Source: a virus. From it: a stretch of 64,000 nt of DNA. Positions 26,626 through 52,909 of this stretch are shown piece by piece. The stretch is from the IMG/VR virus record IMGVR_UViG_3300043313_001352, positions 1-64,000 of that record; one strand, 5' to 3'. Below the pieces are notes generated by a model. That model did no database searches, was not told the DNA's origin, and saw only the letters and a program-made list of their open reading frames with translations. Position 1 is the stretch's first letter. Each line of letters starts with the position of its first letter. A program made the position numbers and the translations under genes.

Positions 26626-26722
26626 CTGACGTTTACGCAGCGTCACCGCATCCCGCATCCCCTCTGACTGCACGCTGTGGTAGGCTTACGTCAGTAAGCC
26701 ACCAACGACGTAAGGACTCGCC
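26626..26722 (+). promoter_or_regulatory. Box/promoter/leader module 1
   Basis: CTGACGTTTACGCAG ends 26640; TAGGCT at 26681; GGCTTAC-gtca-GTAAGCC. Confidence 0.8.
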
Positions 26723-27133
26723 ATGACTGCCCCCCTCGCCCCCGGCCACGCCCCCTCCATCCCCTGCCAGACCGAGCGCGAGCGGATGCTCAACTCCCTG
26801 TTCACCACTGCCCTTGAGGGTGGCATCGGCTACTGGTCGCAGTGCACGGAGTACCGGTGGCACGTGGCAGGCACCGACGCAGTCGAGGCTCTCGACTTCA
26901 TCGCGGTGATCATCGAGACCGGAGACGGAGACGGCACCGACCAGTTCGTGATCGACCAGTCGGTGATCAAGCGTGGCATCCGCAAGGCGCACGCGCGCGG
27001 CAACTGGAACGACTACGTCACCGCTGCGCTGCGGGACCTGACGTTCGGCAACTGGGACGAGGTCGACTACGACTCCGACGTGGCCGACATCGTCGTCCAG
27101 TTCGGGCTCTGGGACGAGTACCGCTACGCCTGA
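26723..27133 (+). CDS. Conserved phage hypothetical protein
   Basis: TTALEGGIGYW...DSDVADIVVQFGLWDEYRY. Confidence 0.75.
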   Translation: MTAPLAPGHAPSIPCQTERERMLNSLFTTALEGGIGYWSQCTEYRWHVAGTDAVEALDFIAVIIETGDGDGTDQFVIDQSVIKRGIRKAHARGNWNDYVTAALRDLTFGNWDEVDYDSDVADIVVQFGLWDEYRYA

Positions 27134-27180
27134 CCGGCGAGCCCGGCGCCAGCTGCCTCGGCAGCTGGCGTGCGAGGCGG

Positions 27181-27308
27181 AACGTCAGTGACGTTTACGC
27201 AGCGGCCCGGCGGCCCGGCGCCTGGCCTGGAAGGCGCGCGATGCGCGGGATGGCTGCACGGTGTGGTAGGCTTACGTCAGTAAGCCACAACGACGTAAGG
27301 ACAGAACG
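27181..27308 (+). promoter_or_regulatory. Module 2
   Basis: AACGTCAGTGACGTTTACGCAG ends 27202; TAGGCT at 27267. Confidence 0.8.
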
Positions 27309-27503
27309 ATGCAGGTCGACACGAACTGGAAGCCGGGAGCCTCCGACCGCGAGCGCTCCGCCCGTGAGCACGGCGCATGGGTGGTTCGCCCGCACGGCAC
27401 CCGTGCTCGGGACAACCGCTCGCGTGAGGCTCGCGACTGGCAGGCTGAGGCTCGCGACGAGGTCGAGGCTCTCGGGCTGGCCATGGTCGGGGGTGCCCGA
27501 TGA
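27309..27503 (+). CDS. Small hypothetical protein
   Basis: Leader upstream. Confidence 0.6.
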   Translation: MQVDTNWKPGASDRERSAREHGAWVVRPHGTRARDNRSREARDWQAEARDEVEALGLAMVGGAR

Positions 27504-28003
27504 GCGTCACCTTCTCGATCGAGGCCAACTTCACCGGCGCCTTCACCGCGCACTGCTACGAGGGCGACGTCACCCTCGGGCCGGTCGAGGGCTACGAGGC
27601 GATCGTGCCGCTGCTCGACGCGCACAAGGCGACGTGCGAGGACTGCGCGGCGTACGGGCTGCACTCCCAAGCCGTGCTCGACGTGGACGACACGCTCGAC
27701 CTCAACGTCTCCAACCTCAACGCGCGCACCCTGCTGATCGCGCTCGGGCTGGACGACGGCGACGACCTCTGCGGCACGCTCGACGGCGAGGACTTCCTCG
27801 GCCGGGTGCTGCTCGCGCTGGCCACCGACCGCGACGACTCGGGCGTGCCGTACGCCATCGTCGGTGGCGCGGAGGTCGGCCAGTCCGGCGCGACCGTGAT
27901 CGACTGCGGCCGGTCGGTCGGTTACTTCGCGGACCGGTTCGGCGCGCTGCACGCGCTCGCGCTGGAAGCCGTGCGGCTCGGGCGGGGCGTGGTCTGGTCC
28001 TGA
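27500..28003 (+). CDS. Hypothetical phage protein
   Basis: LNVSNLNARTLLIALG; ATGA coupling. Confidence 0.7.
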   Translation: MSVTFSIEANFTGAFTAHCYEGDVTLGPVEGYEAIVPLLDAHKATCEDCAAYGLHSQAVLDVDDTLDLNVSNLNARTLLIALGLDDGDDLCGTLDGEDFLGRVLLALATDRDDSGVPYAIVGGAEVGQSGATVIDCGRSVGYFADRFGALHALALEAVRLGRGVVWS

Positions 28004-28064
28004 GCGCACCTCAGCGCGCCGTGGCCCCTCGCCGGGCACGGCGCGCTAGGCGCGTCAGCTCGGG

Positions 28065-28271
28065 CTAGAAGTAGCCGGGCGTGTCCTTCTTGGGCGCGTT
28101 CATGTCCTCGCGCGTGTGCTCGCCCTTCTTGACGGGGTCCGCCTCGTCCTGCAGGTAGTACTCCTGCTCGCGGGCGTTGGCGTGCTCGTGCCCCGGCTTC
28201 TGCGTCCGGGTGCCCGGCATGTCGTCCCAGGACTCCGGGTAGGTGCTGGGCTCGTTGCTCGACTGGCTCAT
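28065..28271 (-). CDS. Small hydrophilic protein, antisense to the array
   Basis: GAGAGGA RBS; MSQSSNEPSTYPESW. Confidence 0.5.
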   Translation of the reverse strand: MSQSSNEPSTYPESWDDMPGTRTQKPGHEHANAREQEYYLQDEADPVKKGEHTREDMNAPKKDTPGYF

Positions 28272-28345
28272 CGGACTGATCCTCTCGGGGGTGGTCCTCG
28301 TCCTTGCAGGGTACGCGCTTGCGGCGTGGTTAGCGATACACAAAG

Positions 28346-28551
28346 CACTGACGTTTACGCAGCCCTCCCCCTGCTCGCAGCCCCGACGATCGGGAGCGTG
28401 GGAGCCCGACGATTGGTAGCGGACGCAACGGTGTGGTACGCTTACGTCAGTAAGCGAGACACCCGCTACGGATGCGAAACCGTGGGGTCTGACTGGAATC
28501 TCAGACCGGGGGTCCCGCTCACTCCCCCGACACACGACGTAAGGACACCCG
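28346..28551 (+). promoter_or_regulatory. Module 3, with structured insert in leader
   Basis: Box ends 28362; TACGCT at 28437. Confidence 0.8.
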
Positions 28552-28875
28552 ATGACCGAGACCGTGACCCTCCTCCCGACCGTGCGCATCTGGCGCACCC
28601 GGTTCTTCGAGGCGGACGTCTGGGAGGGCGACTTCCCCCGCGACGACACGCGCAGCGAGGACTTCGACTTCGACGTCGAGGACTGCATCGAGGGCGCCGT
28701 GCGCGTGCTCCAGCGCGAGGGCTTGACCTTCACCGCCACCGGCACGGACTGGGCCGGGAATCCGGACGGCACCGTGATCATCGACTACGGCACCGCGCAG
28801 CGCGAGGAGACCACCGGTCACTTGATCGGCTTCACCGCTGAGCAGACCGCGACGATCATCGAGCGGGTGGGCTGA
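28552..28875 (+). CDS. Acidic hypothetical protein
   Basis: Leader upstream. Confidence 0.7.
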   Translation: MTETVTLLPTVRIWRTRFFEADVWEGDFPRDDTRSEDFDFDVEDCIEGAVRVLQREGLTFTATGTDWAGNPDGTVIIDYGTAQREETTGHLIGFTAEQTATIIERVG

Positions 28876-28876
28876 C

Positions 28877-29158
28877 ATGCGCTTGCTCCCGACGCTGGAC
28901 TTCCCCGAGACCGAGACCGGTACCTTCCTCGCCCGTGCCTACGCCACGCAGGAGGAGGGCTTCCTGGCCGTCGAGCAGGACGAGTCCGGGGACATCGTGG
29001 ACCTGGCCTACTCCTGGGAGACCGCCGAGTCGCTCGCCCTGAACGGATCGCGGGTCACCGTGCTCTGGTCGGACGGCGACTACTGGGACGTCGAGCGGGT
29101 GCAGCGGTTGTGCGATACCTCGCGAGCGGCCTACCGCGACTGCTTCGACGTCGCCTAG
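28877..29158 (+). CDS. Acidic hypothetical protein
   Basis: Adjacent ORF. Confidence 0.6.
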   Translation: MRLLPTLDFPETETGTFLARAYATQEEGFLAVEQDESGDIVDLAYSWETAESLALNGSRVTVLWSDGDYWDVERVQRLCDTSRAAYRDCFDVA

Positions 29159-29168
29159 TCTGGGCGCA

Positions 29169-29301
29169 CGTAGCCGCTACTCTCCCCCGATGACGCGGCT
29201 ACGGGTCCCTCGCGTGGACGGGGCGAGCCCCGGCTGCTGACCCGAGACGGCGCCGGAGGCTTCCCTCCCGGAACGCCCCGCTTCCTCCACGCGAGGGACC
29301 C
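29169..29301. ncRNA. Candidate structured RNA
   Basis: 9-bp hairpin then perfect 16-bp IR 29203-29218/29286-29301 enclosing further stems. Confidence 0.45.
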
Positions 29302-29309
29302 CTCCCCCT

Positions 29310-29426
29310 CACTGACGTTTACGCAGCTGGCTCCCTCGCCGCGGGCCGTGCGTCGACGCGCGGTTTCGACACTGACGGGAGAGTGTGGTATGCTTACGCA
29401 GTAAGCAAACGACGTAAGGACAGATC
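29310..29426 (+). promoter_or_regulatory. Module 4
   Basis: Box ends 29326; TATGCT at 29389. Confidence 0.8.
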
Positions 29427-29885
29427 ATGACCAGCATCCCGACCGGCCCGCGGGCCGACAAGCATGGCAACCTGATCGCCCGCGAGGGTGCCGACCGTTG
29501 CGGCTGCGGTGCGAAATACTGGGAGGACGACAAGTGCGTCGACTGCGGCACGCACGTGCGGCACGCGATCCAGCCGGAACTCCCCGAGGTGCCCGCGAAC
29601 CCGATCATCGCGCTGGTCCGCGAGGACGACGTGGAGCACGACCCGTGGGGCACCGGCATGGCGTGGGCGTTCGCCGTCGCCGAGAACCTGCACTTCCGCG
29701 CGGGGGAGCCCGTGCCGGACTCGCTCGGCTACCGGCCGGGCATGGGCGCGACCGATATCGAGCCGGACGATTTCAACGCGCAGACCATCGCCGAAGAGGG
29801 TTTCGACTCCGGCACGATGACCGAGGCGGCCGAGATCTTGAGCGCTTTCCTCGACGAGTGCAAGCGACTCGGGAAGGACTACTGA
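29427..29885 (+). CDS. Hypothetical protein with N-terminal Zn ribbon
   Basis: CGCGAKYW...CVDCG. Confidence 0.7.
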   Translation: MTSIPTGPRADKHGNLIAREGADRCGCGAKYWEDDKCVDCGTHVRHAIQPELPEVPANPIIALVREDDVEHDPWGTGMAWAFAVAENLHFRAGEPVPDSLGYRPGMGATDIEPDDFNAQTIAEEGFDSGTMTEAAEILSAFLDECKRLGKDY

Positions 29886-30088
29886 TGGCGCGCGTGTGGC
29901 AGCGCGTGGTCACCACGCCCGAGTTCCGCGCGGGTCAGAACGCGGCGTGGGAGGACTTCCGCAAGGATCCGGACTCGACCCCCAACGTCGAGTTGCTCGC
30001 GCGGCTGCGCTCGCGTGAGTTCGCCGCTGGCTACACCGACGAGTGGGAGCACTTCATTGCCCCCGTGCTCGCCCGGCGCCAGGACTAA
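29885..30088 (+). CDS. Small hypothetical protein
   Basis: TGATG coupling. Confidence 0.55.
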   Translation: MARVWQRVVTTPEFRAGQNAAWEDFRKDPDSTPNVELLARLRSREFAAGYTDEWEHFIAPVLARRQD

Positions 30089-30134
30089 AGCGCGCGCCAG
30101 CTGACGGCCCCGGCCGCCAGCTGACGGCGCACGG

Positions 30135-30249
30135 AACGTCACTGACGTTTACGCAGCTCCGGCGGCCTGGCGCCGCGGCCGTGCACTCGGAGCGGCGGGA
30201 CGGTGTGGTATGCTGACGTAGTCAGCACGACACAACGACGGAGGACCGG
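30135..30249 (+). promoter_or_regulatory. Module 5
   Basis: AACGTCACTGACGTTTACGCAG ends 30156; TATGCT at 30209; TGCTGAC-gta-GTCAGCA. Confidence 0.8.
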
Positions 30250-30504
30250 ATGAGCGACGCAGTCGAGTGGATCTTCGAGGGTCCCGACCCCGAGGTGGGC
30301 ATCTTCGGCGACCTGATCGTGCACCCGTGCGCGAAGAACGTGGACGAGGAGCAGGCCGAGGAGGTCGGCACCGTGCACGCCGAGAAGGTGCACACGGTCC
30401 GGATCATCACCCGGTTCCGGTGCCCGGCCTGCGGCGCGGAGACCACCGCGACCGAGGAGCAGCCGCGTGAGCACTTCCTGGAGCCCGGCCGGGGTGGCTG
30501 GTGA
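30250..30504 (+). CDS. Small hypothetical protein
   Basis: Leader upstream. Confidence 0.65.
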   Translation: MSDAVEWIFEGPDPEVGIFGDLIVHPCAKNVDEEQAEEVGTVHAEKVHTVRIITRFRCPACGAETTATEEQPREHFLEPGRGGW

Positions 30505-30872
30505 TGGCCAAGCCCGAGACCAGCACCCGTGAGAACGCAGTGATCGCGCTCGGCGCGGTCCTGCTGATCGTGATGTTCTACGGCGGCGGCGCGATCGGCA
30601 GCAACTACTCCGAGACCACCGGCGTGGGCACGCTGATCGGGCTGCTGGCTGGCACCGGCGCCTGGGCGCTCGTGTTCGGCACGGTGTGCTGGCTGCTGGC
30701 CCCCAAGCCCAAGCCGCTGGAGACCTCGCCGTTCGATGACGACCAGCCCGAGGAGACCGAGCCCGTCGAGGAGGAGGACGACCACGAGGAGCAGGAGCCC
30801 GTGGATCTCGACTACTTCGAGATGGAGCAGGCGCGGCAGGCCGAGGAGTACCCGACGCGCGAGGGCTGGTGA
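30504..30872 (+). CDS. Two-TM protein with acidic tail
   Basis: Hydrophobic segments, D/E-rich C-terminus. Confidence 0.65.
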   Translation: MAKPETSTRENAVIALGAVLLIVMFYGGGAIGSNYSETTGVGTLIGLLAGTGAWALVFGTVCWLLAPKPKPLETSPFDDDQPEETEPVEEEDDHEEQEPVDLDYFEMEQARQAEEYPTREGW

Positions 30873-30876
30873 CGCA

Positions 30877-30917
30877 CGAAACCCCGCTAGATACACGAGG
30901 TGCCTAGCGGGGTTTCG
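30877..30917. terminator. Terminator-like hairpin
   Basis: 14-bp perfect IR CGAAACCCCGCTAG/CTAGCGGGGTTTCG. Confidence 0.65.
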
Positions 30918-30920
30918 CTC

Positions 30921-31030
30921 TGCCTTCACCCACTTTGGTCTGGGCCGAAGCCCGTCTCATCATGGGATCTGACTGCAGCCTTTGCCTTCACGCTCAAGGT
31001 CCCGAAGGACCGAGTGCTCTCCAGCTCTGG
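30921..31030 (-). ncRNA. Candidate minus-strand structured RNA
   Basis: Two cUUCGg hairpins, each followed by GUGAAGGCA. Confidence 0.45.
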
Positions 31031-31052
31031 CAGGTCCCCAACGTAGCCAGGG

Positions 31053-31174
31053 CACTGACGTTTACGCAAGGAGCGACACGCCGCGCGCTGGCGTTTTGGC
31101 AAACAGGTTGGTGATGACGGGACGGTGTGGTACGCTTTCCTTGAAAGCGAACGACAACGACGAAGGGACACCCG
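31053..31174 (+). promoter_or_regulatory. Module 6
   Basis: Box ends 31069; TACGCT at 31131; CGCTTTC-ctt-GAAAGCG. Confidence 0.8.
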
Positions 31175-31531
31175 ATGCGCGAGGACCACTACTCCAACAC
31201 GGTGGAGGACGCCGGTGCGTGGGAGCGCGAGCGTGGCATGGCCGAGGACGTGGACTACGACCGGCCCACCGCCGCCGAGGCGGAGGCTGACCGCTGGTTC
31301 ACCGGTCCGGAGACGGTGATCGGCTACGGCATCCGCTGCGCTCACTGCAAGAACCGCCACGCCACCGTGGCCGACGTCCGCTGGTGCGGGGACGTGCACG
31401 CCGAGGCCAAGGCTGAGGCGCTGGCCGAGGCCGAGGCGGACCGGGCCTTCGCCCGCGACCGCGAGGCGATCGCCGAGCGCGGCACCTGGTTCGGTCCGGT
31501 CACCGAGGCCGACTCGTGGGACGAGCGGTGA
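31175..31531 (+). CDS. Hypothetical protein
   Basis: IRCAHCKNRHATVADVRWC. Confidence 0.7.
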   Translation: MREDHYSNTVEDAGAWERERGMAEDVDYDRPTAAEAEADRWFTGPETVIGYGIRCAHCKNRHATVADVRWCGDVHAEAKAEALAEAEADRAFARDREAIAERGTWFGPVTEADSWDER

Positions 31532-31827
31532 GCGCCCCGCTGGCGAGCGCGTGCGAGCACCACGACGCCGCGGGAGAGTGCGACGAGGAGTGCCTCGCGC
31601 TGGTGCAGGCGATGAACACCGACTTCAGCGAGCCGATGATCTACGGCGACTATCTCGGCGGCACGTCCTCGATCGACTGGTCGGGCTGCCACGCGCCGGA
31701 GCCGCGCGTCGAGCGGATCGCCCGGCTCGACCCCGTCACCCGGCGGATCTACTGGGAGGAGGTGTGCCCCTACGAGGACGAGCACGACGCCACCGACTGC
31801 ACCGCCTGCTCGTATCTGGGGATGTGA
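31528..31827 (+). CDS. Cys-rich acidic hypothetical protein
   Basis: GTGA coupling. Confidence 0.6.
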   Translation: MSAPLASACEHHDAAGECDEECLALVQAMNTDFSEPMIYGDYLGGTSSIDWSGCHAPEPRVERIARLDPVTRRIYWEEVCPYEDEHDATDCTACSYLGM

Positions 31828-31873
31828 GCCCCCGCTCGTCCGGCCGCCCCAAGGAGGCGGCCGGGCGGGTCGG

Positions 31874-31996
31874 AACGTCACTGACGTTTACGCAGCCAGC
31901 TCGCCTGGCCGCCGGGGTACGACTCCCGCGTCGCGAGAGGTTCGACTGGACAGTGTGGTATGCTTTCCTTGAAAGCAAACGACGAAGGGACACACC
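31874..31996 (+). promoter_or_regulatory. Module 7
   Basis: Box ends 31895; TATGCT at 31959. Confidence 0.8.
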
Positions 31997-32458
31997 ATGA
32001 GGATCCACTCCGACTCGGTCGACACGCTCGACATCCGCAAGGCCGCGACGCTCGCCGCCGTGGACTTCACCCGCTTCGACCTCAAGGGCAGCCGCTCACG
32101 CGCGCAAGCCTTCGACGTCATCTTGACCGGTGACTCCGGGCGCCAGCAGAACGGCGGCGGCGATGAGGCGGCGTCCTGGGACCAGTGGGGGATCTTCCTG
32201 GGCCACCTGTTCCGGCTGGACCAGCACCTCAAGACGCCCTACTACGTCGACGGGGAGCACTTCGTCTGGGTCACCGGCAACCGGTTCACCCCCGACTTCA
32301 CCCCCGGTGACTGCCACCGCCGCCACCGGTGGGGGATGGGTCACCCCGCGATCACCGGGACCTACTCGGTCGCCGAGTGCGAAGAGGGCAAGGACCCGTG
32401 CGGCGCGGTTCAGCGCTGGATGCTGCACGGGCGCACGTTCGCCGACCTCAACCGCTAG
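31997..32458 (+). CDS. Conserved actinophage hypothetical protein
   Basis: GSRSRAQAFDV...AASWDQWGIFLGHLF. Confidence 0.75.
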   Translation: MRIHSDSVDTLDIRKAATLAAVDFTRFDLKGSRSRAQAFDVILTGDSGRQQNGGGDEAASWDQWGIFLGHLFRLDQHLKTPYYVDGEHFVWVTGNRFTPDFTPGDCHRRHRWGMGHPAITGTYSVAECEEGKDPCGAVQRWMLHGRTFADLNR

Positions 32459-32477
32459 CGGAGCGGCGGCACCGGTG

Positions 32478-32621
32478 CTAGTAGTACCGGTGCCGGGTGC
32501 CGCCGACGGGCACGAACCAGAGCACCAGGCCGACGATGATCAGGATCGCGCCGATGATCGTCAGCCAGTAGATGCCGAGCACCAGGCCGAGCACCAGAAG
32601 GATGAGCCCGAGGATGACCAT
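32478..32621 (-). CDS. DUF6131-like small membrane protein
   Basis: MVILGLILLVLG...IGAILIIVGLVLW..PVGGTRHRYY. Confidence 0.7.
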   Translation of the reverse strand: MVILGLILLVLGLVLGIYWLTIIGAILIIVGLVLWFVPVGGTRHRYY

Positions 32622-32637
32622 GGGCTCAGGGTACGCC

Positions 32638-32764
32638 CACTGACGTTTACGCAGCTTTCCCACTCTGGAGCGGCCCGCTGGTCTAGTCCCGATTCGCGTG
32701 TGTCCGGACACTGGTGTATTGTTCTTCTTGTAAGAACAACGACGCACCGACCGAAGGACACCCC
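32638..32764 (+). promoter_or_regulatory. Module 8
   Basis: Box ends 32654; TATTGT at 32717; TTGTTCTT-cttgt-AAGAACAA. Confidence 0.75.
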
Positions 32765-33205
32765 ATGATCACTGCCGAGTACCTCGCCCTTGTCGAGGGT
32801 GGCACCGACCACTTCACCGTGGAGTTCCACAGCGACACGAAGCCTGCGGCCAAGCACGCGAGCAAGCGGCTCCGCAAGGTCGTCACGGCGGTCGTCATGA
32901 CCGGCGCGTCGTACGCGAACCTCCGCGTCAACAAGGGCGTCGAGACCGGCCCGCTGCCGTGGGGTTCGTGGATGGACGGTGCCGAGCCGTTCGTGATCCA
33001 GCACAAGGGTCAGGACTACGCCCGCCTGTACTGCATCGAGCACGGCGTGCGGGCGATCTACACCGTGGACGGCGAGGTCGTCACGCGGGACGAGTACGAG
33101 TCCTACCTGACGCCCAGCCAGCGCTCCGCGCCCCGGCCCAACGGCGGCTGCATCACGGTCAAGATGAGCGGCGTGCGGCTCGTCGGCGAACCGGCGTTCG
33201 CATGA
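32765..33205 (+). CDS. Hypothetical phage protein
   Basis: LPWGSW...IQHKGQDYARLY. Confidence 0.7.
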   Translation: MITAEYLALVEGGTDHFTVEFHSDTKPAAKHASKRLRKVVTAVVMTGASYANLRVNKGVETGPLPWGSWMDGAEPFVIQHKGQDYARLYCIEHGVRAIYTVDGEVVTRDEYESYLTPSQRSAPRPNGGCITVKMSGVRLVGEPAFA

Positions 33206-33618
33206 CCACGGTCCGCGTCCGCGTCCGCGTTCGTTGTGGCACCTGCGCCGACTGCACAGCCGCCGCTGCCCCGGCCAAGGTGGCCAAGATCGAAGCCCGC
33301 CCGGCTCGTCCGGCTCGTCGGAACGCCTGCGTGTACTGCACCACGCCGGGGTGCGCCGGGGACTGCCCGCGCGCCGTGGCAGCCAAGCGCAAGGCCGAGG
33401 TGCCCTTCTCATGGACGTCGTGGGAGTGGCTGGTGCCGTGGCTGGACTGGTGGCTGACACGGCTGTCCGCCACCAAGCCCCGCACCGCCTCGGCGATCGT
33501 CTACATCGGCCTCGGTCTGGTGATCCTCGCGATCGTCGCCGCCGTGCTTGCCTACTTGGCAGCGATGCTCCTGATGGTCCCGTTCGTGATCATCGGCTTC
33601 CTCATCTTGGTCGACTGA
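33202..33618 (+). CDS. Cys-rich membrane protein
   Basis: ATGA coupling; C-terminal TM segments. Confidence 0.6.
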   Translation: MTTVRVRVRVRCGTCADCTAAAAPAKVAKIEARPARPARRNACVYCTTPGCAGDCPRAVAAKRKAEVPFSWTSWEWLVPWLDWWLTRLSATKPRTASAIVYIGLGLVILAIVAAVLAYLAAMLLMVPFVIIGFLILVD

Positions 33619-33676
33619 CCCACTGCCCGCCACGCGACCCGGCCCCGAAGAGGGGCCGGGAAGGAGGCCGCGAGCT

Positions 33677-33784
33677 ACTGACGTTTACGCAGGGCGGCGC
33701 CTGGGCCGCGGGCGCGCCTGGTTGGGGTCTGTCGGGACAGTGTGATATGCTTACGCAGTAAGCAAACGACGAAGGGACACCCCC
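33677..33784 (+). promoter_or_regulatory. Module 9
   Basis: Box ends 33692; TATGCT at 33746. Confidence 0.8.
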
Positions 33785-34315
33785 ATGGCACACACCGCCA
33801 CCCGCACCAACCGCTACGCCGCCGCCTGCGCCGACTGCCGCGGCTGGGTGCACGCCGACGCAGGCGTGCTCACCAAGTCCGCCGCTGGCAAGTGGGAGAC
33901 CCGGCACATGGGCGCGTGCCCCGCGCCCAAGGCACCGGCGAAGAACGCCGAGCCCGGCTACTACGTCCGCCCCGCCGACGGCCGCGCGGTCGTCGTGGTC
34001 GCGGGCAAGCGCCACCCCGAGCGCACCTACGGCAAGGTGCTCACCTTCCCGGCCGACGGCAGCCGCCCGTCGTGGGACTACGTGCGCGGCGCGGGCTACT
34101 CGGTCGCCGACCTGCGGCCGATGACCGCCGCCGACGCGGCCGAGATGGGCTTGAGCCATGGCTACTGCATCCGCTGCTGCGCACCGCTGGGCGGCGAGAC
34201 CCTGTCCGCCGCCGTGTCCGCGCTGGTCGGCTACGGCGAGACCTGCGCCAAGCGGATGGGGTGGGCCTACCCGAAGGGCGTCGCGGCCCAGCGCGCTCGC
34301 CTCGCGGAGGGCTGA
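33785..34315 (+). CDS. Zn-binding protein with DUF6011-like C-terminus
   Basis: NRYAAACADC; GYCIRCCAPL...SALVGYGETCA. Confidence 0.7.
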   Translation: MAHTATRTNRYAAACADCRGWVHADAGVLTKSAAGKWETRHMGACPAPKAPAKNAEPGYYVRPADGRAVVVVAGKRHPERTYGKVLTFPADGSRPSWDYVRGAGYSVADLRPMTAADAAEMGLSHGYCIRCCAPLGGETLSAAVSALVGYGETCAKRMGWAYPKGVAAQRARLAEG

Positions 34316-34360
34316 GCCCCGCGCACGAAGACCCCCGACCCGTGAGGGCCGGGGGTCTTC

Positions 34361-34425
34361 CCATGCCGTGCCATGCCCAACCAAGCCCCGCCTGACCGAG
34401 CCAGACCCCGCCATGCCTCGCCGCG
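34361..34425. repeat. Period-5 tract, 13 x CCNNR
   Basis: ccatg ccgtg ccatg cccaa ccaag ccccg cctga ccgag ccaga ccccg ccatg cctcg ccgcg. Confidence 0.8.
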
Positions 34426-34474
34426 TACTCGGCTCCAGGCTAGCGCCAGCTGAAGGCCAGCTGGGCCGCCGCGG

Positions 34475-34606
34475 AACGTCACTGACGTTTACGCAGGCGG
34501 CCAACCCTCCAGCTGGGCTTCAGCGTTGCGCACTGTTGCGATGGCGGGACGGTGTGGTATGCTTACTTCAGTAAGCGACACAGAGACACAACGAAGGGAC
34601 ACCCCC
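34475..34606 (+). promoter_or_regulatory. Module 10
   Basis: Box ends 34496; TATGCT at 34558. Confidence 0.8.
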
Positions 34607-35458
34607 ATGACCGCCAAGTCCGACGCCCGCGAGGCCCGCCTCGAAGCCATGCACGAGGTGCTGGTTGCCAAGACGGCCGAACTCGCCACGAGCGAGGGCT
34701 GGATGCAGTACTTGGAGTTCGCCTCCAAGTTCCGCCAGTACAGCCTCAACAACACGCTGCTGATCCTCTGCCAGCGCCCCGACGCGACGCACGTCGCCTC
34801 GTACAAGAAGTGGGGCGAGATGGGGCGTCAGGTCCGCAAGGGCGAGCGCTCCATGTCGATCTTCGCTCCGATGATGCGCAAGCGCGAGGACGAGAAGACC
34901 GGCGAGGAGAAGCGCTACATCTCCGGCTTCCGGCTGGTCCCGGTCTTCGACGTCGCGCAGACCGACGGCGACCCGATCCCCGAGCCCGTGCTCCCCGTGC
35001 TGCTCGACGGCGAGGCCCCCGAGGGTCTGTGGGATTCGCTGCTGACGATCGTGGACGCCTCCGGCTACCACGTCGAGCGCGGCGACTGCCACGGGGCGAA
35101 CGGGTTCACCCGCCCGAGCGAGCGGCTGATCATGGTCCGCGAGGACGTGAGCGACGCGCAGGCCGTCAAGACGCTGGTGCACGAGGTCGCGCACATGCTG
35201 CTGCACTGTGGCGAGGAGGGCGGGCTCACCGCCGATGCGATGCTGCACCGCTCAGTCGCTGAGGTCGAGGCCGAGTCGGTCGCGCACATCGTCGCCAACG
35301 TGCACGGGCTGCCGACCGAGACCTACTCGCTGCCCTACATCGCGGGCTGGTCCAACGGCAAGCCCGAGCAGGTCGCAGCGACTGCGGACCGCGTGCTCAA
35401 GACCGCGAAGCAGATCCTCGCGATCACCGAGCCCGCTGAGGAGGAGGTCGCGGCCTGA
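34607..35458 (+). CDS. ArdC-like protein (ssDNA-binding N-domain plus zincin-like domain)
   Basis: FRQYSLNNTLLI..QRPDATHVASYKKW..MGRQVRKGE...VFDVAQTDG; TLVHEVAH...EVEAESVA. Confidence 0.9.
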   Translation: MTAKSDAREARLEAMHEVLVAKTAELATSEGWMQYLEFASKFRQYSLNNTLLILCQRPDATHVASYKKWGEMGRQVRKGERSMSIFAPMMRKREDEKTGEEKRYISGFRLVPVFDVAQTDGDPIPEPVLPVLLDGEAPEGLWDSLLTIVDASGYHVERGDCHGANGFTRPSERLIMVREDVSDAQAVKTLVHEVAHMLLHCGEEGGLTADAMLHRSVAEVEAESVAHIVANVHGLPTETYSLPYIAGWSNGKPEQVAATADRVLKTAKQILAITEPAEEEVAA

Positions 35459-35465
35459 GCGTGAG

Positions 35466-35493
35466 AGCCCGCCCCGAGAGGGGCGGGCTTTCT
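35466..35493 (+). terminator. Intrinsic terminator-like hairpin
   Basis: AGCCCGCCCC-gaga-GGGGCGGGCT followed by TTCT, right after stop. Confidence 0.65.
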
Positions 35494-35506
35494 CGCGCCA
35501 GAACAG

Positions 35507-35617
35507 CACTGACGTTTACGCAGCTCGGCTCTCCTTCAGGGGCCTGGGGCGGTGCGAGGTGCCGCGACAGTGTGGTATGCTTACATCTGTAAGCAGGAAA
35601 CGACGAAAGGACACCCT
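35507..35617 (+). promoter_or_regulatory. Module 11
   Basis: Box ends 35523; TATGCT at 35576. Confidence 0.8.
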
Positions 35618-36004
35618 GTGGACATCAACTTCAGCGTCGGTGACGTGGTCGCCTACGAGCCCTTCGGTGGCGGCGAGCGCATCGTGGTGGTCACCGACCG
35701 CGAGGTGCACAACGGGCAGGACGCTTTCGACGCCGACCTGATCGGCGCCGACGAGCCCTTCAAGGTCTGGGGCTACGCCGACCAGATCACCCGCAACCTC
35801 GGACCGGCCCGCATCGCGGTGGTCGAGGGGCAGGCCGACAAGGTCGCCACGATCGCCCGGTACCTGCCCAGCAACTACGCCGCGAGCGTCGACGGCGAGA
35901 ACGTGCGGATCTTCGGATTCGACTCGCGCGGGTGGACGCTGGACGACTACGTGATCCCGCGTCTCGCGAGCGGCATGTGGCGCGCCACTGAGGTGACGGC
36001 ATGA
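35618..36004 (+). CDS. Hypothetical actinophage protein
   Basis: YLPSNY...GFDSRGWTLDDYVIPRLASG. Confidence 0.7.
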   Translation: MDINFSVGDVVAYEPFGGGERIVVVTDREVHNGQDAFDADLIGADEPFKVWGYADQITRNLGPARIAVVEGQADKVATIARYLPSNYAASVDGENVRIFGFDSRGWTLDDYVIPRLASGMWRATEVTA

Positions 36005-36204
36005 GCACCGCCACCGTGAGCAAGGCCGCGACAATCATCGCGGGCGCTGACGCGGCGTATGGCCGCGAGGATCAGGCATGGTTCGACGCGCTCCCCACCG
36101 AGTCGCTCACGCTGCTGTGGGGCGTGGCAGTCGCCACCCTCGCCGGGGCGTCATGGGATGACGAGGTGTTCGACGCGCTCGCGTCTCGCGGATGGTTCGA
36201 CTGA
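36001..36204 (+). CDS. Small hypothetical protein
   Basis: Coupled. Confidence 0.6.
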   Translation: MSTATVSKAATIIAGADAAYGREDQAWFDALPTESLTLLWGVAVATLAGASWDDEVFDALASRGWFD

Positions 36205-36500: not shown

Positions 36501-36705
36501 TGGGGCAGAAGTGGTGGCCCACCTCGCCCGGCATCCCGGCGGCAGGACACGTCACCGCCAGCGGGTTCTGGCATCCCGGTGGGGGTCACAACTGCGATCG
36601 CTGCAAGGGCTAGGGTGCGCCGCATGGATCCCCTGATCGCCTACCTCAAGCGTCGCGCCGCCCAGTTCATCACTGGGCGGCGTGTTCGTTTCGCCAGCGC
36701 GAACC

Positions 36706-39279: not shown

Positions 39280-39284
39280 GCGCC

Positions 39285-42416: not shown

Positions 42417-42530
42417 GACTTCCGCCCCGCGTCGTTGCAGGCGCGGGGCGGGGGACCGTTCACAGTGAACGGCTCTGTAGTCGCTGGCGTCAGCTCGCAG
42501 TCGAGCTGGCGCCAGCGCAGCCAGGAACCG

Positions 42531-42687: not shown

Positions 42688-44523
42688 ATGGGCCACATCT
42701 TGTACGGCAAGGTCGAGAGCACTGTGAACAAGAGCGACGACGACTGGTACGGCGTCGCGGCGCAGGTCGGCAAGTTCACGAACAAGCGTGCGCACCGCAC
42801 CGATATCACCGCAGTCGTGTCCAGCACTGCTGGCATGGGCGCTCCCGCGTGCTTCATCCCCTCGCTCGCTGAGATGCACATCAACACCGAGGCCGCTCCC
42901 ATGGGTCCTCCCGACAAGGTCAATCTGGACGACCGCATGTGGATGCTCACCTACGCCCCGAGCGTGGGCGCGTGCACCCACGAAGCGGCACACGCCCGCC
43001 ACACGCACTGGGACCCCCGCGACCTGATGGAGAACTACGAGGCCACCCGCAAGATGGTCGACGTGATCACCACGCTGGAAGAGCCGCGCATCGAGGCACA
43101 GGCGCTGCGCTTCCACCCTGACTCGCGTCCCTTCCTGCGGGGCTGCGCGATGGAGATTGTCGGGCGCGACTTCGTGATCCCCGACTCCCGGTACGGCGCT
43201 GCCGCTGCTGCTGGTCTGCTGCTGGCGCGGGTCGATGCCAAGGTGCTCACGCGCCGCGAGGCGTCGACGTTCCGCCGCGATATCGCTGCGGTGCTGGGCG
43301 AGACGCTGGACGTGTTGGAGCCGCTGTGGCAGCGCTTCCTGATGCTGCACGACCACGACTACGCGGGCATGGTGGAGATTGCCGCCGCGTGGCTGGACGC
43401 GCTGGGCGAGGACCCCGAGGACGCCTCCGAGATGGTGGGCGAGTCGATGATGGGCGAGCCGCTTCCCGGCGACCCCGGCGAGGATGACGGCTCTGGCAAG
43501 GGCGAGGGCGGCGAGGGTGAGGGCGACGAGTCCAAGGGTGAGGCGTCCGGCTTCGGCGACAAGATCATGGGCAAGGTGCACATCACCGAGTCCAAGATGG
43601 ACAAGGAGGTCACCGAGGCTCGCGGCGAAGAGCGCGCCGAGCGTGCTCGCGCCGAGCGCCGCACCGACGCCGAGCGCCGCAAGGCTGCCGAGGGTCCGCA
43701 CGCCGAGGCGTTCGCGCACACCGGGCTGCACGGCTACACGCCGGACGGGTTCGCGCACTACGCGGGGTCACGCCCGCCGAGCGCCGACGAGCGCCGTGCG
43801 GCCAAGTCGCTGGCCCGGTCCTTGGAGAAGATCGACTACCGCGACCGTGCGGTGACCAAGGTCCGCAGCGTGGTGCCTCCCGGCCGTCTGGTCGGGCGGG
43901 CTGCGGTGCAGGCCGACGCGATGACCGAGCAGGGCCGGGACGCCTCCGGTGTCGAGGTCTGGTCCGGCAAGCGCCGCAAGCGCGTCGAGTCCACGCCGCT
44001 GACGATCGGGTTCCTCGGGGATATCTCGGGGTCGATGAACGCAGCCATGGAGCCGCTGGCATCGAGCCAGTGGGTCGTGAGCACCGCAGGCGCGCACGTG
44101 GATGCCAAGGTCGCCAGCGTGCACTTCGGTGATCAGGTGCACGGCATCACGCCCGCTGGCGTGCGGGAGAAGGACGTGCGCCTGTTCGCGCCGTACGACG
44201 GCAGCGAGGCGTTCAAGGACGCAGCGCTGGCGATCGACAAGGAACTGAACCTGCTGGACGGGCGGGGTGCTCGCATCCTGTTCATCGCCAGCGACGGGCA
44301 GTACGTGAACGGCACCGATATGGCCTACGCCGCGAAGTGGATTCCGTTGGCCAAGCGCAAGGGTGTTGCGGTGATCTACCTCAACTTCCTCGGGTCGATG
44401 AACCCGACCGGCGTGGCCGGGTCCAAGGTGATCGACTGCGTCCGCAAGTCTCCCGCCGAGGTCGCCGCGCTGTGCGGGAAGATCGCGATCGCGGAGGTCC
44501 GCAAGATCGACCAGCGGGTCTAG
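42688..44523 (+). CDS. VWA-domain protein with N-terminal HExxH domain (CobT/NorD-like partner)
   Basis: HEAAH...LEEPRIE; acidic linker; MIDAS DISGSM and SDG. Confidence 0.88.
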   Translation: MGHILYGKVESTVNKSDDDWYGVAAQVGKFTNKRAHRTDITAVVSSTAGMGAPACFIPSLAEMHINTEAAPMGPPDKVNLDDRMWMLTYAPSVGACTHEAAHARHTHWDPRDLMENYEATRKMVDVITTLEEPRIEAQALRFHPDSRPFLRGCAMEIVGRDFVIPDSRYGAAAAAGLLLARVDAKVLTRREASTFRRDIAAVLGETLDVLEPLWQRFLMLHDHDYAGMVEIAAAWLDALGEDPEDASEMVGESMMGEPLPGDPGEDDGSGKGEGGEGEGDESKGEASGFGDKIMGKVHITESKMDKEVTEARGEERAERARAERRTDAERRKAAEGPHAEAFAHTGLHGYTPDGFAHYAGSRPPSADERRAAKSLARSLEKIDYRDRAVTKVRSVVPPGRLVGRAAVQADAMTEQGRDASGVEVWSGKRRKRVESTPLTIGFLGDISGSMNAAMEPLASSQWVVSTAGAHVDAKVASVHFGDQVHGITPAGVREKDVRLFAPYDGSEAFKDAALAIDKELNLLDGRGARILFIASDGQYVNGTDMAYAAKWIPLAKRKGVAVIYLNFLGSMNPTGVAGSKVIDCVRKSPAEVAALCGKIAIAEVRKIDQRV

Positions 44524-45187: not shown

Positions 45188-45235
45188 CCGCATCAACCGG
45201 CCGCCGCCTGGCGGCCGGTTTCGGCAGTGACGTCT

Positions 45236-45346
45236 ACTGACGTTTACGCAGCCTGGCGGCTACCTGGTGGGCTGGCCTGGTTTGCCTGCTGATCTAGATG
45301 GTGTAGACTGTTCTCAACAGCCCAACGACGACAAGGACACACTGAC
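45236..45346 (+). promoter_or_regulatory. Module 18
   Basis: Box ends 45251; TAGACT at 45304; CTGTT-ctc-AACAG. Confidence 0.8.
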
Positions 45347-46805: not shown

Positions 46806-47405
46806 ATGGACGGCATCCGGGACGGCTTCGGCGACGACCCCACCGTGGACGAGGTGCTCGCCGAGGAGGAGGAGTTCCTCGTCCGCAACGCCCGCAACGC
46901 GCTGGTCAAGAAACTGGGCCGGGGCTTCCCCGCCGGAGCCGATGAGGACGCTGTCCAGGAGGCCCGCATTGCGGCCTGGCAGTCCTGGGAGAAGAACCAC
47001 AACCGGGCCTACCTGAACATCGCCGCCCGGCAGCGGCTGATGCAGCACGTCTACCGCGACCAGTGGTTCGGCACCAAGCCGACGGCGCACGAGAAGGACC
47101 CGATCCGCCGGGCCAACCGGGACAGCTTCGATGACCCGGACAACGGCATTGACGTTCTGGTCAACTCGGCGACCTGGGTCGACCAGGTGCTGCTCGCCTA
47201 TCACCACGGCGAGATCCACCAGGCGCTGGACGCACTGACGTTTACGCAGCGCGAGTACGTGGTGCTGCGCTTCTGGGGCGGGATGTCGGACACCGAGATC
47301 GCTGCGCACCAGGGGAAGACACGGGGCGGAGTGTCTTCGGTGTGGCACAAGACCATCCGCCCGGCGCTCGCCTCTCAGTTGGAGTTGTTGAGCGACCTGT
47401 GCTAA
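46806..47405 (+). CDS. Sigma-70 family (ECF-like) sigma factor
   Basis: Region 2 EDAVQEARIAAW...AYLNIAAR; region 4 ALDALTFTQREYVVLRFWGGMSDTEIAAHQGKTRGGV. Confidence 0.85.
   Translation: MDGIRDGFGDDPTVDEVLAEEEEFLVRNARNALVKKLGRGFPAGADEDAVQEARIAAWQSWEKNHNRAYLNIAARQRLMQHVYRDQWFGTKPTAHEKDPIRRANRDSFDDPDNGIDVLVNSATWVDQVLLAYHHGEIHQALDALTFTQREYVVLRFWGGMSDTEIAAHQGKTRGGVSSVWHKTIRPALASQLELLSDLC
47233..47249 (+). promoter_or_regulatory. Perfect box inside sigma CDS
   Basis: CACTGACGTTTACGCAG, encodes LTFTQ. Confidence 0.85.
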
Positions 47406-49999: not shown

Positions 50000-50349
50000 G
50001 GCAACTGGACCTCACCGTCTTCGAGCCCGGCGACACCGTCGGCACCCTGTCCCAGGACGGCCGGGTCTCACTGTGGACGGTCTCCCCTGAAGGCGGGCTG
50101 ACCCGTGCCGACAACCGGCTGTTCGGAAACGCCACTGGGTTCGACCTGGACACCCCCATCGAGCAGCTCAACCTCCAGGTGCGCACCTTCAACCTGCTCA
50201 AGCGCGAAGACGTCAACACGGTCGGCGACCTGCTGACGTTTACGCACGAGAAGGGCGACGAGGAGATGCTCGCGATCCGCAACATGAGCCAGAAGAACGT
50301 CGACGAGATCAGGAACTGGGCCACCAGGCTGAGGAGCGAACGACCGTGA
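49996..50349 (+). CDS. RNA polymerase alpha-CTD-like protein
   Basis: PIEQLNLQVRTFNLLKREDVNTVGDL...EEMLAIRNMSQKNVDEI parallels RpoA CTD PIE.L.L.VR..N.LKRE...TVG.L...LL.IRN.G.K...E. Confidence 0.85.
   Translation: MRQLDLTVFEPGDTVGTLSQDGRVSLWTVSPEGGLTRADNRLFGNATGFDLDTPIEQLNLQVRTFNLLKREDVNTVGDLLTFTHEKGDEEMLAIRNMSQKNVDEIRNWATRLRSERP
50233..50247 (+). promoter_or_regulatory. Box inside alpha-CTD CDS
   Basis: CTGACGTTTACGCAC, encodes LTFTH. Confidence 0.75.
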
Positions 50350-50567: not shown

Positions 50568-50872
50568 GCATGCTGCTGAAGACCGCCCTGGTGCTGTACA
50601 TGCTCGCCACCGCAGCGACCGGTGCGTTGTCGGCCTTCGCCATCGCGGTCGACGCCTGGCCGTTGGCGATCGCCATCATCGCGGTCTGGATGTTCGGCTG
50701 GAGCCCGCTGGTGATCGTGGGCTACGCCGAGCTGGAGCGGCGCCTCGACGCAGAAGCTGGAGCTGGCCCGCCTGCGCAAACGTCAGTGGGACGTCATCGG
50801 GCCGACGGCCCAGCTGACCCAGCTGGCGACCAGGTGGAGCGGTTCCATCTCCTTGAGGAGCTGGCCTCGTGA
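50564..50872 (+). CDS. Membrane protein
   Basis: Two TM segments. Confidence 0.55.
   Translation: MSMLLKTALVLYMLATAATGALSAFAIAVDAWPLAIAIIAVWMFGWSPLVIVGYAELERRLDAEAGAGPPAQTSVGRHRADGPADPAGDQVERFHLLEELAS
50772..50788 (-). promoter_or_regulatory. Inverted box variant
   Basis: Reverse complement CACTGACGTTTGCGCAG (1 mismatch). Confidence 0.65.
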
Positions 50873-51192: not shown

Positions 51193-51210
51193 CGTCACTG
51201 ACTTTTCCGC
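51191..51210 (+). promoter_or_regulatory. Degenerate box
   Basis: AACGTCACTGACTTTTCCGC. Confidence 0.5.
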
Positions 51211-51331
51211 TGTAGCTAGCACCGTTGCGCCAGCTGAAGCTACCCGTCGGTCGACATCCCGTGGACCGGTCGGTTAGAGTAGTACAAATCAACCATCAAC
51301 ATGAACCATCAACGACATGAAGGACAGCACC

Positions 51332-51865
51332 ATGACCCGATTCATCACCGTGCACGTCGGCTGCGACTGGCCGACCTGCGAGACCGTCGCCCCTGAAGGC
51401 GAAGGCATCGTCATCGAGAAGGTGCTGTCCATCGACGGCAAGCAGGGACGGTCGTTCCTGCTCTGCAAGAAGCACGTCGACGAGTTCGAGTCGGTCGTGC
51501 TGCCGTTGATGCAGGCCGGGGTCAAGGTCGAGCAGCCCAGCTCCAGCTCGCGGTCGCGGTCGAAGTCGGCCGGAACGTCATCGACGTCCGGCAGCTCAAG
51601 CCCAGCTGCGCCGCTGAAGGCCGACGAGGATGGCACCCATCCGTCGCTGGTCTGCAAGGTCGACGGCTGTGAGCGTCACGGTCGCCCGCTGTCCAACCGG
51701 ACCGGGATGGCCCAGCACGCCATCCGTAGCCACGGCTACGCCGATCTCGCCGCCTACGAGGCGGAGTTCGGGCCGGTCGCCACCGTCCCGCGCAAGAACA
51801 CCAAGAACACCTCACCGTCGGTCGAGGGCACGGTTGCCCCGGTCGACGAACCATCCATCAGCTGA
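51332..51865 (+). CDS. Lsr2-like dimerisation domain fused to C2H2-type zinc finger
   Basis: ITVHVGCD...VLSIDGK...LCKKHVDEF..VVLPLMQAGVKV; CKVDGC...LSNRTGMAQHAIRSH. Confidence 0.6.
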   Translation: MTRFITVHVGCDWPTCETVAPEGEGIVIEKVLSIDGKQGRSFLLCKKHVDEFESVVLPLMQAGVKVEQPSSSSRSRSKSAGTSSTSGSSSPAAPLKADEDGTHPSLVCKVDGCERHGRPLSNRTGMAQHAIRSHGYADLAAYEAEFGPVATVPRKNTKNTSPSVEGTVAPVDEPSIS

Positions 51866-51883
51866 AGGTCCCAGGAGGCCACC

Positions 51884-52636
51884 ATGAGTACCCCGACGCA
51901 CTACGAGCGAGCTGCCGCGGTCGCGGATGAGCTGCTGGCTGCGCACGAGCGTGGTGAGTCGGTCTCCGCGATGGCCGAGGAGCACGGTCTCCGTCGCGAG
52001 GCGATCGCCAGCGAGCTGGCCAAGCACGGCATCGGTGAGCCGTCGCCCGCACGGGAGGCGGTCCTGGAGTACGTCCGGGCCAACCCCGGTCTGTCGGTCG
52101 ACGACCTCTCGCTGCGCCTGGACCTGAGCAAGTCATCGGTCTCCCGGTACCTGCGCGGGACGCCGGAGCATCGGTTGGTGGTCAGCCGCAAGGTCTCGCC
52201 GACGCAGCGGTTCACTGATCAGCAGATGGCGGATGCTCTCAAGGCTGCGTTCCGGCAGCTCGACGATCGGTCGAAGGGCCTGTCCCGGAAGCGGTACCGC
52301 GAGATCATGGAGGGCCAGGACGTGCCCGCGGCGGCCACCTACATCCGTCGCTACGGGACCTGGTCGGAGGCGTGTCGGTTGGCCGGGGTCACCGCGGCGA
52401 AGGCCCGGCGGACCAACTACGTCCAGGACTGGAGCAACGACCAGATCGTCGACGCGGTCGCCGAGTTCGTGAACACCACCGGTCAGCTCAGCTACCACGC
52501 TTACGCAGCGTGGGCGCGCGAGCACGACAAGCCGTCGGGTCCCCTCCTCGTCCAGAGGCTCGGCGGTTGGGCCAAGGCGAAGACCCTGGCCATGTCCCAG
52601 TTCGAGACCGACGACCGGACGGTTGCGGTCGCCTAG
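51884..52636 (+). CDS. Multi-HTH protein with two homing-endonuclease-associated repeats
   Basis: NPGLSVDDLSLRLDLSKSSVSRYL; PAAATYIRRYGTWSEACRLAG; PSGPLLVQRLGGWAKAK. Confidence 0.75.
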   Translation: MSTPTHYERAAAVADELLAAHERGESVSAMAEEHGLRREAIASELAKHGIGEPSPAREAVLEYVRANPGLSVDDLSLRLDLSKSSVSRYLRGTPEHRLVVSRKVSPTQRFTDQQMADALKAAFRQLDDRSKGLSRKRYREIMEGQDVPAAATYIRRYGTWSEACRLAGVTAAKARRTNYVQDWSNDQIVDAVAEFVNTTGQLSYHAYAAWAREHDKPSGPLLVQRLGGWAKAKTLAMSQFETDDRTVAVA

Positions 52637-52655
52637 CGCCTCTCCGGTAGAGGAC

Positions 52656-52702
52656 CAGCAGCCCCGTCTCACGGTCGCCATGTCCACTGAGGCGGGGCTG
52701 CT
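52656..52702. terminator. Long hairpin ending the plus-strand block
   Basis: CAGCAGCCCCGTCTCA / TGAGGCGGGGCTGCTG. Confidence 0.6.
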
Positions 52703-52887
52703 GTATGCCCTCTTGGCAAGCGGTTGCCGGTCTAGATAGGCTTAGGTCACCTTGGCCAAGGTGCCGTTGACAAAGCCGGTACCCTCACGCACGGGACGTC
52801 GTCGCGGCGGAAGGGTGCCGAACGGGACGTTCGGTCGCCTCGAATGGTCTGGTACCAGGCCGGTCGCCAGCTGGCGGTCGCCGATCG

Positions 52888-52909
52888 AACGTCACTGACG
52901 TTTATGCAG
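52888..52909 (+). promoter_or_regulatory. Last box copy, no downstream promoter or gene seen
   Basis: AACGTCACTGACGTTTATGCAG. Confidence 0.75.

Follow-up and report, generated by a model that had tools for sequence, protein, structure and literature searches.

Activators of class I, such as CRP at lac-type promoters, bind to an upstream site on one face of the helix at about −62, −73, −83 or −93, and the phage-encoded protein p4 of phi29 binds near −82 at the late A3 promoter and contacts there the C-terminal domain of RNA polymerase's alpha subunit (alpha-CTD). Control of the class I type is much less well documented in actinobacteria than in Escherichia coli. We describe here a 17-bp box, CACTGACGTTTACGCAG, that lies in front of about 19 promoters in the first 64 kb (referred to as the window) of a 114,034-bp virus record of metagenome origin (IMG/VR record IMGVR_UViG_3300043313_001352; the whole virus genome is designated G000). 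As in the CRP and phi29 p4 systems, the box is found upstream on one helical face, at the same distances and with unrelated DNA in between. It differs from these systems in being asymmetric and near-invariant rather than a degenerate palindrome, in serving so many promoters over four distance classes, in being combined with a strong extended −10 element and with extra copies inside genes, and in being known from sequence alone. What is new is this distal box in helical phase at ~19 promoters in four distance classes, together with the fact that the lineage also encodes a sigma factor and an apparently captured alpha-CTD and carries the site in frame in both genes.

Three further types of repeated phage elements have to be compared. 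Conserved inverted repeats are a comparable actinophage element in phiC31. In Cluster O mycobacteriophages, highly conserved intergenic 17-bp repeats are present in tens of copies (PMC4351075). Unlike these palindromes, which have no meaningful orientation, the box is not an inverted repeat: it lacks a dyad, its self-complementarity is limited to the outer CTG…CAG, and its orientation and phase are fixed. The stoperators of Cluster A mycobacteriophages (L5 gp71 type) are asymmetric and short, occur in more than 20 copies, follow the direction of transcription and are mostly located in short intergenic gaps; a monomer with two DNA-binding domains binds to them (PMC9283540). The box is likewise an asymmetric multi-copy site oriented with transcription (22 of 23 copies). 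However, stoperator phages are temperate, and their sites are distributed genome-wide with some overlapping promoters as operators (PMC9283540), whereas the box is confined to one block of a genome without an integrase match, is phased, and overlaps no promoter core. Finally, the PeSLs of T4-like phages are composites of a terminator and a host-type early promoter, repeated in front of small early genes in a plastic region, where they bound gene replacements between close relatives (PMC4122927, PMC2839356). A repeated terminator-promoter cassette is also found here (hairpins at ~60% of the boxes, ~19 near-identical promoters), and it also bounds gene replacements. PeSLs as described have, however, neither a separate distal box nor helical phasing, and the actinobacterial host, the conserved leader and the covarying start-site repeat are further differences.

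At up to three mismatches the box occurs 23 times in the window, 22 times on the plus strand and once on the minus strand, versus a mean of 0.11 and a maximum of 1 match in shuffled sequence. The first copy starts at 26624 and the last one ends at 52909, and the other ~88 kb of the genome contain none. A previous interpretation made from the letters alone (in the following, the sequence-only reading) had listed 21 plus-strand copies between 26.6 and 52.9 kb only; the range holds for the whole genome, but the count was one short. Positions 2-17 (ACTGACGTTTACGCAG) are nearly invariant among the copies, and GGAACGT directly precedes about half of them. The box is a non-random, orientation-fixed element: it is asymmetric, 22 of the 23 copies lie in the sense strand of transcription, and the 19 with a promoter all have the same direction. 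No copy overlaps a −35 or −10 element. With 53% G+C and a location at about −53 to −103, the box also does not qualify as an UP element, which is A/T-rich, is found at −40 to −60 and is contacted by alpha-CTD itself. An ECF-type promoter was rejected, the GGAAC-to-CGT spacing in the extended box being, by eye, far too short.

The 19 copies are followed by a promoter-like block with a sigma-A-type extended −10 element, consisting of a weak TTGnnn, 16-18 bp, and then (GGGAC)nGTGTGG-TAnnnT. The −35-like TTGnnn, 16-18 bp upstream of the −10 element, is present in roughly two-thirds of the units (estimated by eye), so that the extended −10 elements recognized by the sequence-only reading stand, but its statement that there is no conserved −35 is only approximately right. 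A promoter of a phage-encoded RNA polymerase with a 5′ hairpin was considered and rejected, because the TA…T pattern is in agreement with sigma-A, as are the TGn and the weak TTG at 17-18 bp. An inverted repeat, whose first bases are the last two or three of the −10 element, spans the predicted start site (about −9 to +7 of each promoter, e.g., 26684-26699 and 30212-30226). Its arms covary (GCTTAC/GTAAGC, GCTGAC/GTCAGC, GCTTTC/GAAAGC), and 6-8 nt after the −10 element, at the last base of its loop, there is a purine, in the position in which sigma-A would be expected to start. In many of these repeats, one half of the box recurs as an identical 7-8-mer (ACGTCAGT, CTGACGT or TTACGCAG); in five or more phased units the repeat has no box-like half-site (e.g., GCTTTCcttGAAAGC). 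Then follow a leader with the ribosome-binding site, AACGACGAAGGGAC (e.g., 31156-31169), and the start codon. On the other side, strong G+C-rich hairpins predicted by folding end 8-20 nt upstream of ~60% of the boxes; a simple scan for T-rich intrinsic terminators revealed no excess above chance. The cassette, which would be repeated ~19 times in the early region, can thus be pictured as a hairpin terminator, the box, an unrelated spacer of quantised length, a host sigma-A-type promoter (weak TTGnnn −35, core GGGACnGTGTGG-TAnnnT), an inverted repeat over the predicted start site, and a conserved leader with ribosome-binding site.

The distance between box and promoter is quantised in steps of ~10.5 bp, in this genome and also in its relatives. 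With the spacer defined as the number of bases between the box and the −10 hexamer, the 18 spacers and the additional one of 62 bp behind the degenerate box at 51196 (Table 1) yield length classes of 39-43, 52-53, 61-64 and 72-74 bp. A Rayleigh test gave an R of 0.74, the best period being 10.45 bp; an R this high was not obtained with any of 5000 random spacer sets. The 18 distances of the sequence-only reading were reproduced, each being larger by 1 because of a different counting convention, and its assignment of 17 of them to four classes ~10.5 bp apart is borne out by the counts and by the Rayleigh test. It was also correct that the intervening DNA is unrelated: the mean pairwise local alignment score of the spacers is 7.9 versus 7.2 after shuffling. 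The spacers are therefore not paralogous, and the length classes have not been inherited from a duplicated cassette. When the start site is assumed to lie 7 nt after the −10 element, the box centres are calculated to be at −61/−64, −73/−74, −82 to −85 and −93/−95 (near −62, −73, −83 and −94), which on these predicted start sites is the geometry of class I sites (one helical face near −61.5, −72, −82.5 and −92.5).

Searches of viral collections for further relatives returned only G001, a 176,996-bp viral genome with terminal repeats, and otherwise short metagenome contigs. There are 22 plus-strand boxes in G001, and their map positions are the same as in the window; protein identities between the two range from 44 to 100%. 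At least nine genes of the box region of G000 have no counterpart in G001 although the flanking cassettes are conserved. The spacers of G001 belong to the same classes (52, 52, 52, 63, 62, 53, 62, 39, 61 and so on). In five of seven cases orthologous spacers of G000 and G001 differ by 12, 9, 10, 22 or 10 bp, the exceptions being 7 and 15 bp. For example, the spacer of box 8 is shorter in G001 via a 10-bp deletion and is otherwise homologous. The contig L211 with five boxes has four measurable spacers (40, 62, 53 and 28 bp), and the soil contig L135 has spacers of 52 and 102 bp. For 30-35 non-redundant spacers from four sources, R was 0.65-0.68 at 10-10.5 bp, which none of 5000 random sets matched. 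A loss of phasing in relatives, named by the sequence-only reading as an outcome that would speak against it, is hence not what was found. An exception is the unit of box 17, which is not phase-conserved, as its orthologs have spacers of 89 and 102 bp.

Table 1. Boxes, −10 elements and regulatory genes of the window (spacers are the bases between box and −10 hexamer)
Feature	Position	Strand	Spacer (bp)	−10 hexamer	Remarks
Box 1 (AGCTGACGTTTACGCAG)	26624-26640	+	40	TAGGCT 26681-26686	
Box 2	27186-27202	+	64	TAGGCT 27267-27272	
Box 3	28346-28362	+	74	TACGCT 28437-28442	G001 ortholog 62 bp
Box 4	29310-29326	+	62	TATGCT 29389-29394	
Box 5	30140-30156	+	52	TATGCT 30209-30214	G001 ortholog 62 bp
Box 6 (last base A)	31053-31069	+	61	TACGCT 31131-31136	G001 ortholog 39 bp
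Box 7	31879-31895	+	63	TATGCT 31959-31964	
Box 8	32638-32654	+	62	TATTGT 32717-32722	G001 ortholog 52 bp
Box 9	33676-33692	+	53	TATGCT 33746-33751	
Box 10	34480-34496	+	61	TATGCT 34558-34563	
Box 11	35507-35523	+	52	TATGCT 35576-35581	Strong hairpin upstream, −36.7 kcal/mol
Box 12 (…CGCCG)	36706-36722	+	62	TAAACT 36785-36790	
Box 13	37656-37672	+	53	TATTCT 37726-37731	
Box 14 (…TTTATGCAG)	38777-38793	+	72	TACGAT 38866-38871	
Box 15	39943-39959	+	43	TAAACT 40003-40008	
Box 16 (…TTTATGCAG)	40793-40809	+	46	CAGGCT	−10 doubtful
Box 17	42531-42547	+	74	TAAACT 42622-42627	Orthologs 89 bp (G001), 102 bp (L135)
Box 18	45235-45251	+	52	TAGACT 45304-45309	Orthologs 53 and 52 bp
Perfect box, promoter-less	47233-47249	+			In frame (A-LTFTQ) in sigma-factor gene
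Box variant, promoter-less	50231-50247	+			In frame (LLTFTH) in alpha-CTD-like gene
Sole minus-strand box (CACTGACGTTTGCGCAG)	50772-50788	−			Within plus-strand open reading frames, without promoter; G001 copy at equivalent place
Degenerate box (3 mismatches)	51196-51212	+	62	TAGAGT 51275-51280	
Terminal box	52893-52909	+			End of plus-strand early block, no promoter after it
Phage sigma factor, 199 aa	46806-47405	+			Sigma-70 regions 2 and 4; contains box 47233
Alpha-CTD-like protein, 117 aa	49996-50349	+			Small N-terminal beta domain, then RNA polymerase alpha C-terminal domain
Multi-helix-turn-helix (HTH) protein, candidate box binder	51884-52636	+			N-terminal HTH, winged HTH, homing-endonuclease-associated repeat sequence

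The copies inside genes deserve separate consideration. The sigma-gene box lies in the part coding for region 4 and is conserved in G001 and in the related loci L133, L135 and L156. Both in-gene boxes encode LTFT with a TTT codon, a rare choice (13 of 680 Phe codons, 1.9%), and the sigma-gene box in addition uses GCA, which makes up 7.9% of the Ala codons. In relatives the nucleotides of both boxes are conserved, whereas the flanking codons drift. For the 50231 box this applies to loci with at least 70% identity in the alpha-CTD-like protein; in the alignment, the LTFT peptide is missing from the most distant alpha-CTD-like proteins, which have other residues there. As judged from these comparisons, the in-gene copies are under nucleotide-level selection. 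Relatives contain further in-gene copies on the antisense strand, adjacent to the alpha-CTD-like gene, and from the conservation of in-gene copies in both orientations it follows that the box acts as DNA rather than as RNA. It also follows from the promoter-less copies that a promoter is not in every case required for the function of the box. At the end of the block, the terminal box is followed by a second, strongly degenerate copy (53015-53031), both being located where plus- and minus-strand transcription converge, and L135 has two tandem copies at the same place. Beyond these copies there is a relatively A/T-rich element (GATAAGGGTCATTATGTAAGCC…, window 53095-53140), which is conserved in L134 and L135.

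The sigma and alpha-CTD-like genes belong to the operon headed by the unit of box 18, whereas the unit of box 51196 heads the last operon (genes 51317-51865 and 51884-52636). The alpha-CTD-like protein is modelled as an N-terminal three-stranded domain followed by a confidently predicted alpha-CTD fold, and mycobacterial alpha subunits are among its best matches to solved structures. Exactly at the segment encoded by the box, four residues are inserted, and the protein retains an Arg, an Asn and a Lys, which we take to correspond to the DNA-contacting R265, N268 and K298 of E. coli alpha. About 20 related protein clusters are found in metagenomes; in named phages there were only short or unannotated records, which are probably bacterial rpoA. 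The protein is apparently a free-standing alpha-CTD captured from an actinobacterial rpoA. Most likely the box is the double-stranded DNA binding site of one sequence-specific, phage-encoded protein, for which, as judged from its domains, the 51884-52636 protein is the best candidate: a monomer with several small DNA-reading modules would fit a long, asymmetric and invariant site. No nuclease domain was found in this protein. It has relatives in at least 100 metagenome protein clusters, and in those of 38-92% identity a KSSVSRY stretch in the winged-HTH region is invariant. Neither this protein nor the sigma factor has a match in named phages.

How would such a protein act? Whole-turn spacing over unrelated DNA requires the bound protein to be on one side of the DNA, facing RNA polymerase, and the match of the box positions near −62, −73, −83 and −94 with those of class I activators would favour stimulation via alpha-CTD. 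In the proposed mechanism the protein would bind to the box on one helical face and stimulate RNA polymerase via alpha-CTD, and the promoter-less copies, both those that end the block and those within the sigma and alpha-CTD-like genes, would bind the same protein, for feedback or as an insulator. To class-I-type stimulation of these promoters through the alpha-CTD of the polymerase we assign, tentatively, a probability of roughly 0.45. The class I interpretation of the sequence-only reading is therefore upheld in part only: the phased geometry and the presence of phage genes for a sigma factor and an alpha-CTD-like protein speak for it, the promoter-less boxes and the box-less promoters do not.

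It should be noted, indeed, that a number of observations weigh against an activator. At least four strongly matching boxes (47233, 50231, 50772 on the minus strand, and 52893) have no promoter, which a pure activator site does not predict, and four promoters of the same type (13209, 14630, 41024 and 48779) have no box. As to core-promoter strength, there is a weak −35 element or none, but the TGn-TAnnnT extended −10 element is strong and is often combined with the weak −35, so that an activator may not be needed. Out-of-phase spacers do exist (28, 45, 46, 47, 89 and 102 bp), and among relatives the spacer of the 42531 unit drifts from 74 via 89 to 102 bp. With a phage-encoded factor, the genes behind the boxes cannot be the very first ones to be expressed, unless the protein is injected with the DNA. 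And the near-invariance of the site is unusual for an activator regulon; concerted evolution by recombination could contribute to this near-invariance. A more elaborate, self-contained version of class I control appears to us distinctly unlikely. In it, the phage multi-HTH protein at the box would recruit host RNA polymerase via alpha-CTD to the ~19 promoters; the free alpha-CTD from the last early operon would be a timed decoy or adaptor, by which these promoters would be switched off at the time when the polymerase is redirected by the phage sigma factor; and the in-frame boxes would close a feedback loop.

An alternative to stimulation, unlikely but to be taken seriously, is negative control, in which a phage protein at the box would shut off or insulate the early units, either as an orientation-dependent roadblock of the stoperator kind or by looping to the half-sites at the start sites. 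Looping also requires helical phasing, and many start-site repeats do carry box half-sequences; the five or more phased units without such a half-site are, however, not accounted for. Negative control would agree with the asymmetry and the many copies of the site, with its orientation along transcription, with its usual place in a short intergenic region directly behind a hairpin terminator, and with the promoter-less copies, both those within the sigma and alpha-CTD-like genes and those at the convergent end, where L135 has two. A simple roadblock, however, needs no helical phasing. Moreover, no promoter core is overlapped by a box, and the boxes are confined to one 26-kb block instead of being spread over the genome. 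An immunity system is unlikely because there is no tyrosine integrase or resolvase match in G000 and no tyrosine integrase match in G001.

Improbable, in our view, is that the box is recognized by a host nucleoid protein, bending protein or transcription factor that wraps the upstream DNA onto the polymerase, the phage carrying optimised copies of a host site. Bend-dependent upstream elements are also expected to be phased, and the box is unchanged across relatives whose proteins are down to ~50% identical. The exact 17-mer is even found in four Nocardia species (L212, Nocardia ninae, 4179-4195; L178, L216 and L223), as a single copy per genome that is intergenic and ~10 nt upstream of an ATG. 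However, none of 185,579 species-representative bacterial genomes has more than one exact copy, a phage-like contig excepted. This contig is L211 (JBIOUP010000255.1, 4.6 kb), which is binned in a metagenome-assembled genome of the Dermatophilaceae; the rest of that genome has no box at up to two mismatches, and a Nocardia genome has matches at chance level only. That none of these bacterial genomes has multiple copies makes an existing host regulon less likely and a phage-encoded protein more so, and it also counts against the hijacked host protein that the sequence-only reading had kept as an option.

Quite improbable is also that no trans-acting factor is involved and that the box is a linker kept uniform by recombination, which would shuffle early-gene modules between related phages in the manner of PeSLs. 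For such a linker speak the near-invariance of the box, the PeSL precedent (PMC4122927, PMC2839356), and the many genes between conserved cassettes that are replaced in G000 versus G001 with the cassettes in place. But a linker gives no reason for whole-turn spacing to the −10 element across unrelated spacers, nor for in-frame copies with the rarest codons in two regulatory genes. Highly improbable, finally, is a small RNA hairpin (CUG-A-CG-UUUA-CG-CAG, with a bulged A and a tetraloop) that would be recognized in read-through or coding transcripts by an RNA-binding protein: the sequence can form it, the recurrent C-to-T variant (TTTATGCAG) keeps a G-U pair and two in-gene copies are on the sense strand, but no compensatory changes were seen, other variants break the stem, conserved in-gene copies are also antisense, most copies are downstream of terminators, and the phasing to the −10 element is left unexplained.

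If stimulation via alpha-CTD is the correct reading, the ~19 units would be a natural many-promoter test set for the reach and the helical face of an upstream-bound protein on actinobacterial RNA polymerase. Box, spacer rule, extended −10 promoter and leader would then also be a compact, portable set of parts for high-G+C hosts. The same reading could jointly account for the capture of an alpha-CTD by a phage and for the in-frame position of a regulatory site in two transcription genes.

Since the phage has come to light in metagenomes only and its host is uncertain, the whole case rests on comparisons of DNA and predicted proteins. The window has a G+C content of 66-72%. The large terminase shares 55% identity with its counterpart in Actinomycetia phage DSL-LC01 (OQ999401.1) and 43-47% with those in the Gordonia phages GMA2 and Sixama. 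Small plus-strand genes occupy 4-53 kb, and the remainder consists of minus-strand genes, including a single open reading frame for 4129 amino acids (genome 82384-94773) with collagen repeats and tail-fibre family matches. This giant protein had been considered as a virion polymerase, which is ruled out by its identity as a collagen-like tail fibre. Tyrosine integrase (PF00589) gave no match in G000 or in the complete relative G001, the resolvase family (PF00239) none in G000, and T7-type polymerase (PF00940) none in G000 or G001, the control genomes for the latter being uninformative. The phage is therefore probably a lytic actinophage that relies on the host polymerase. The binning of L211 is a weak hint at the host family. 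No tRNA or known RNA family was detected in the window, and inspection of minus-strand upstream regions for a late-promoter motif of the phage sigma factor revealed nothing obvious.

DSL-LC01, which is more distantly related, has about 30 cassettes with a similar extended −10 promoter but no remote box, and sigma factor, alpha-CTD-like protein and 51884 protein are absent from it. Its early cassettes (22600-43320) read GATTCTAAAGaTGTTATAAT(a/t)GAATCA, and the inverted repeat flanks the −10 element. The leader AACGACGAAAGGAC (24012-43360) is the same as that of the window. Since it is common to both despite a terminase identity of 55% and a G+C content of 55% in the DSL-LC01 genome, it represents a deeply conserved 5′ untranslated region.

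Some minor observations concern single units and genes. Box 16 is followed by a non-coding stretch of ~200 nt (window 40810-41025; also 28443-28550) with blocks conserved in G001 and L135, after which, ~220 bp downstream of the box, there is a good box-less promoter (−10 at 41030-41035). The stretch may be a small RNA; its fold has a weak consensus of −18 kcal/mol with 5 covarying pairs from 3 sequences. Just upstream of the box-less promoter at 13209 there is an A/T-rich palindrome, GGTATAAAAATACC (window 13180-13210), which is unusual in a genome of 68% G+C and may be an UP-like element. Near the end of the genome (112467-114005, minus strand) a protein with a TROVE (Ro-like) domain is encoded.

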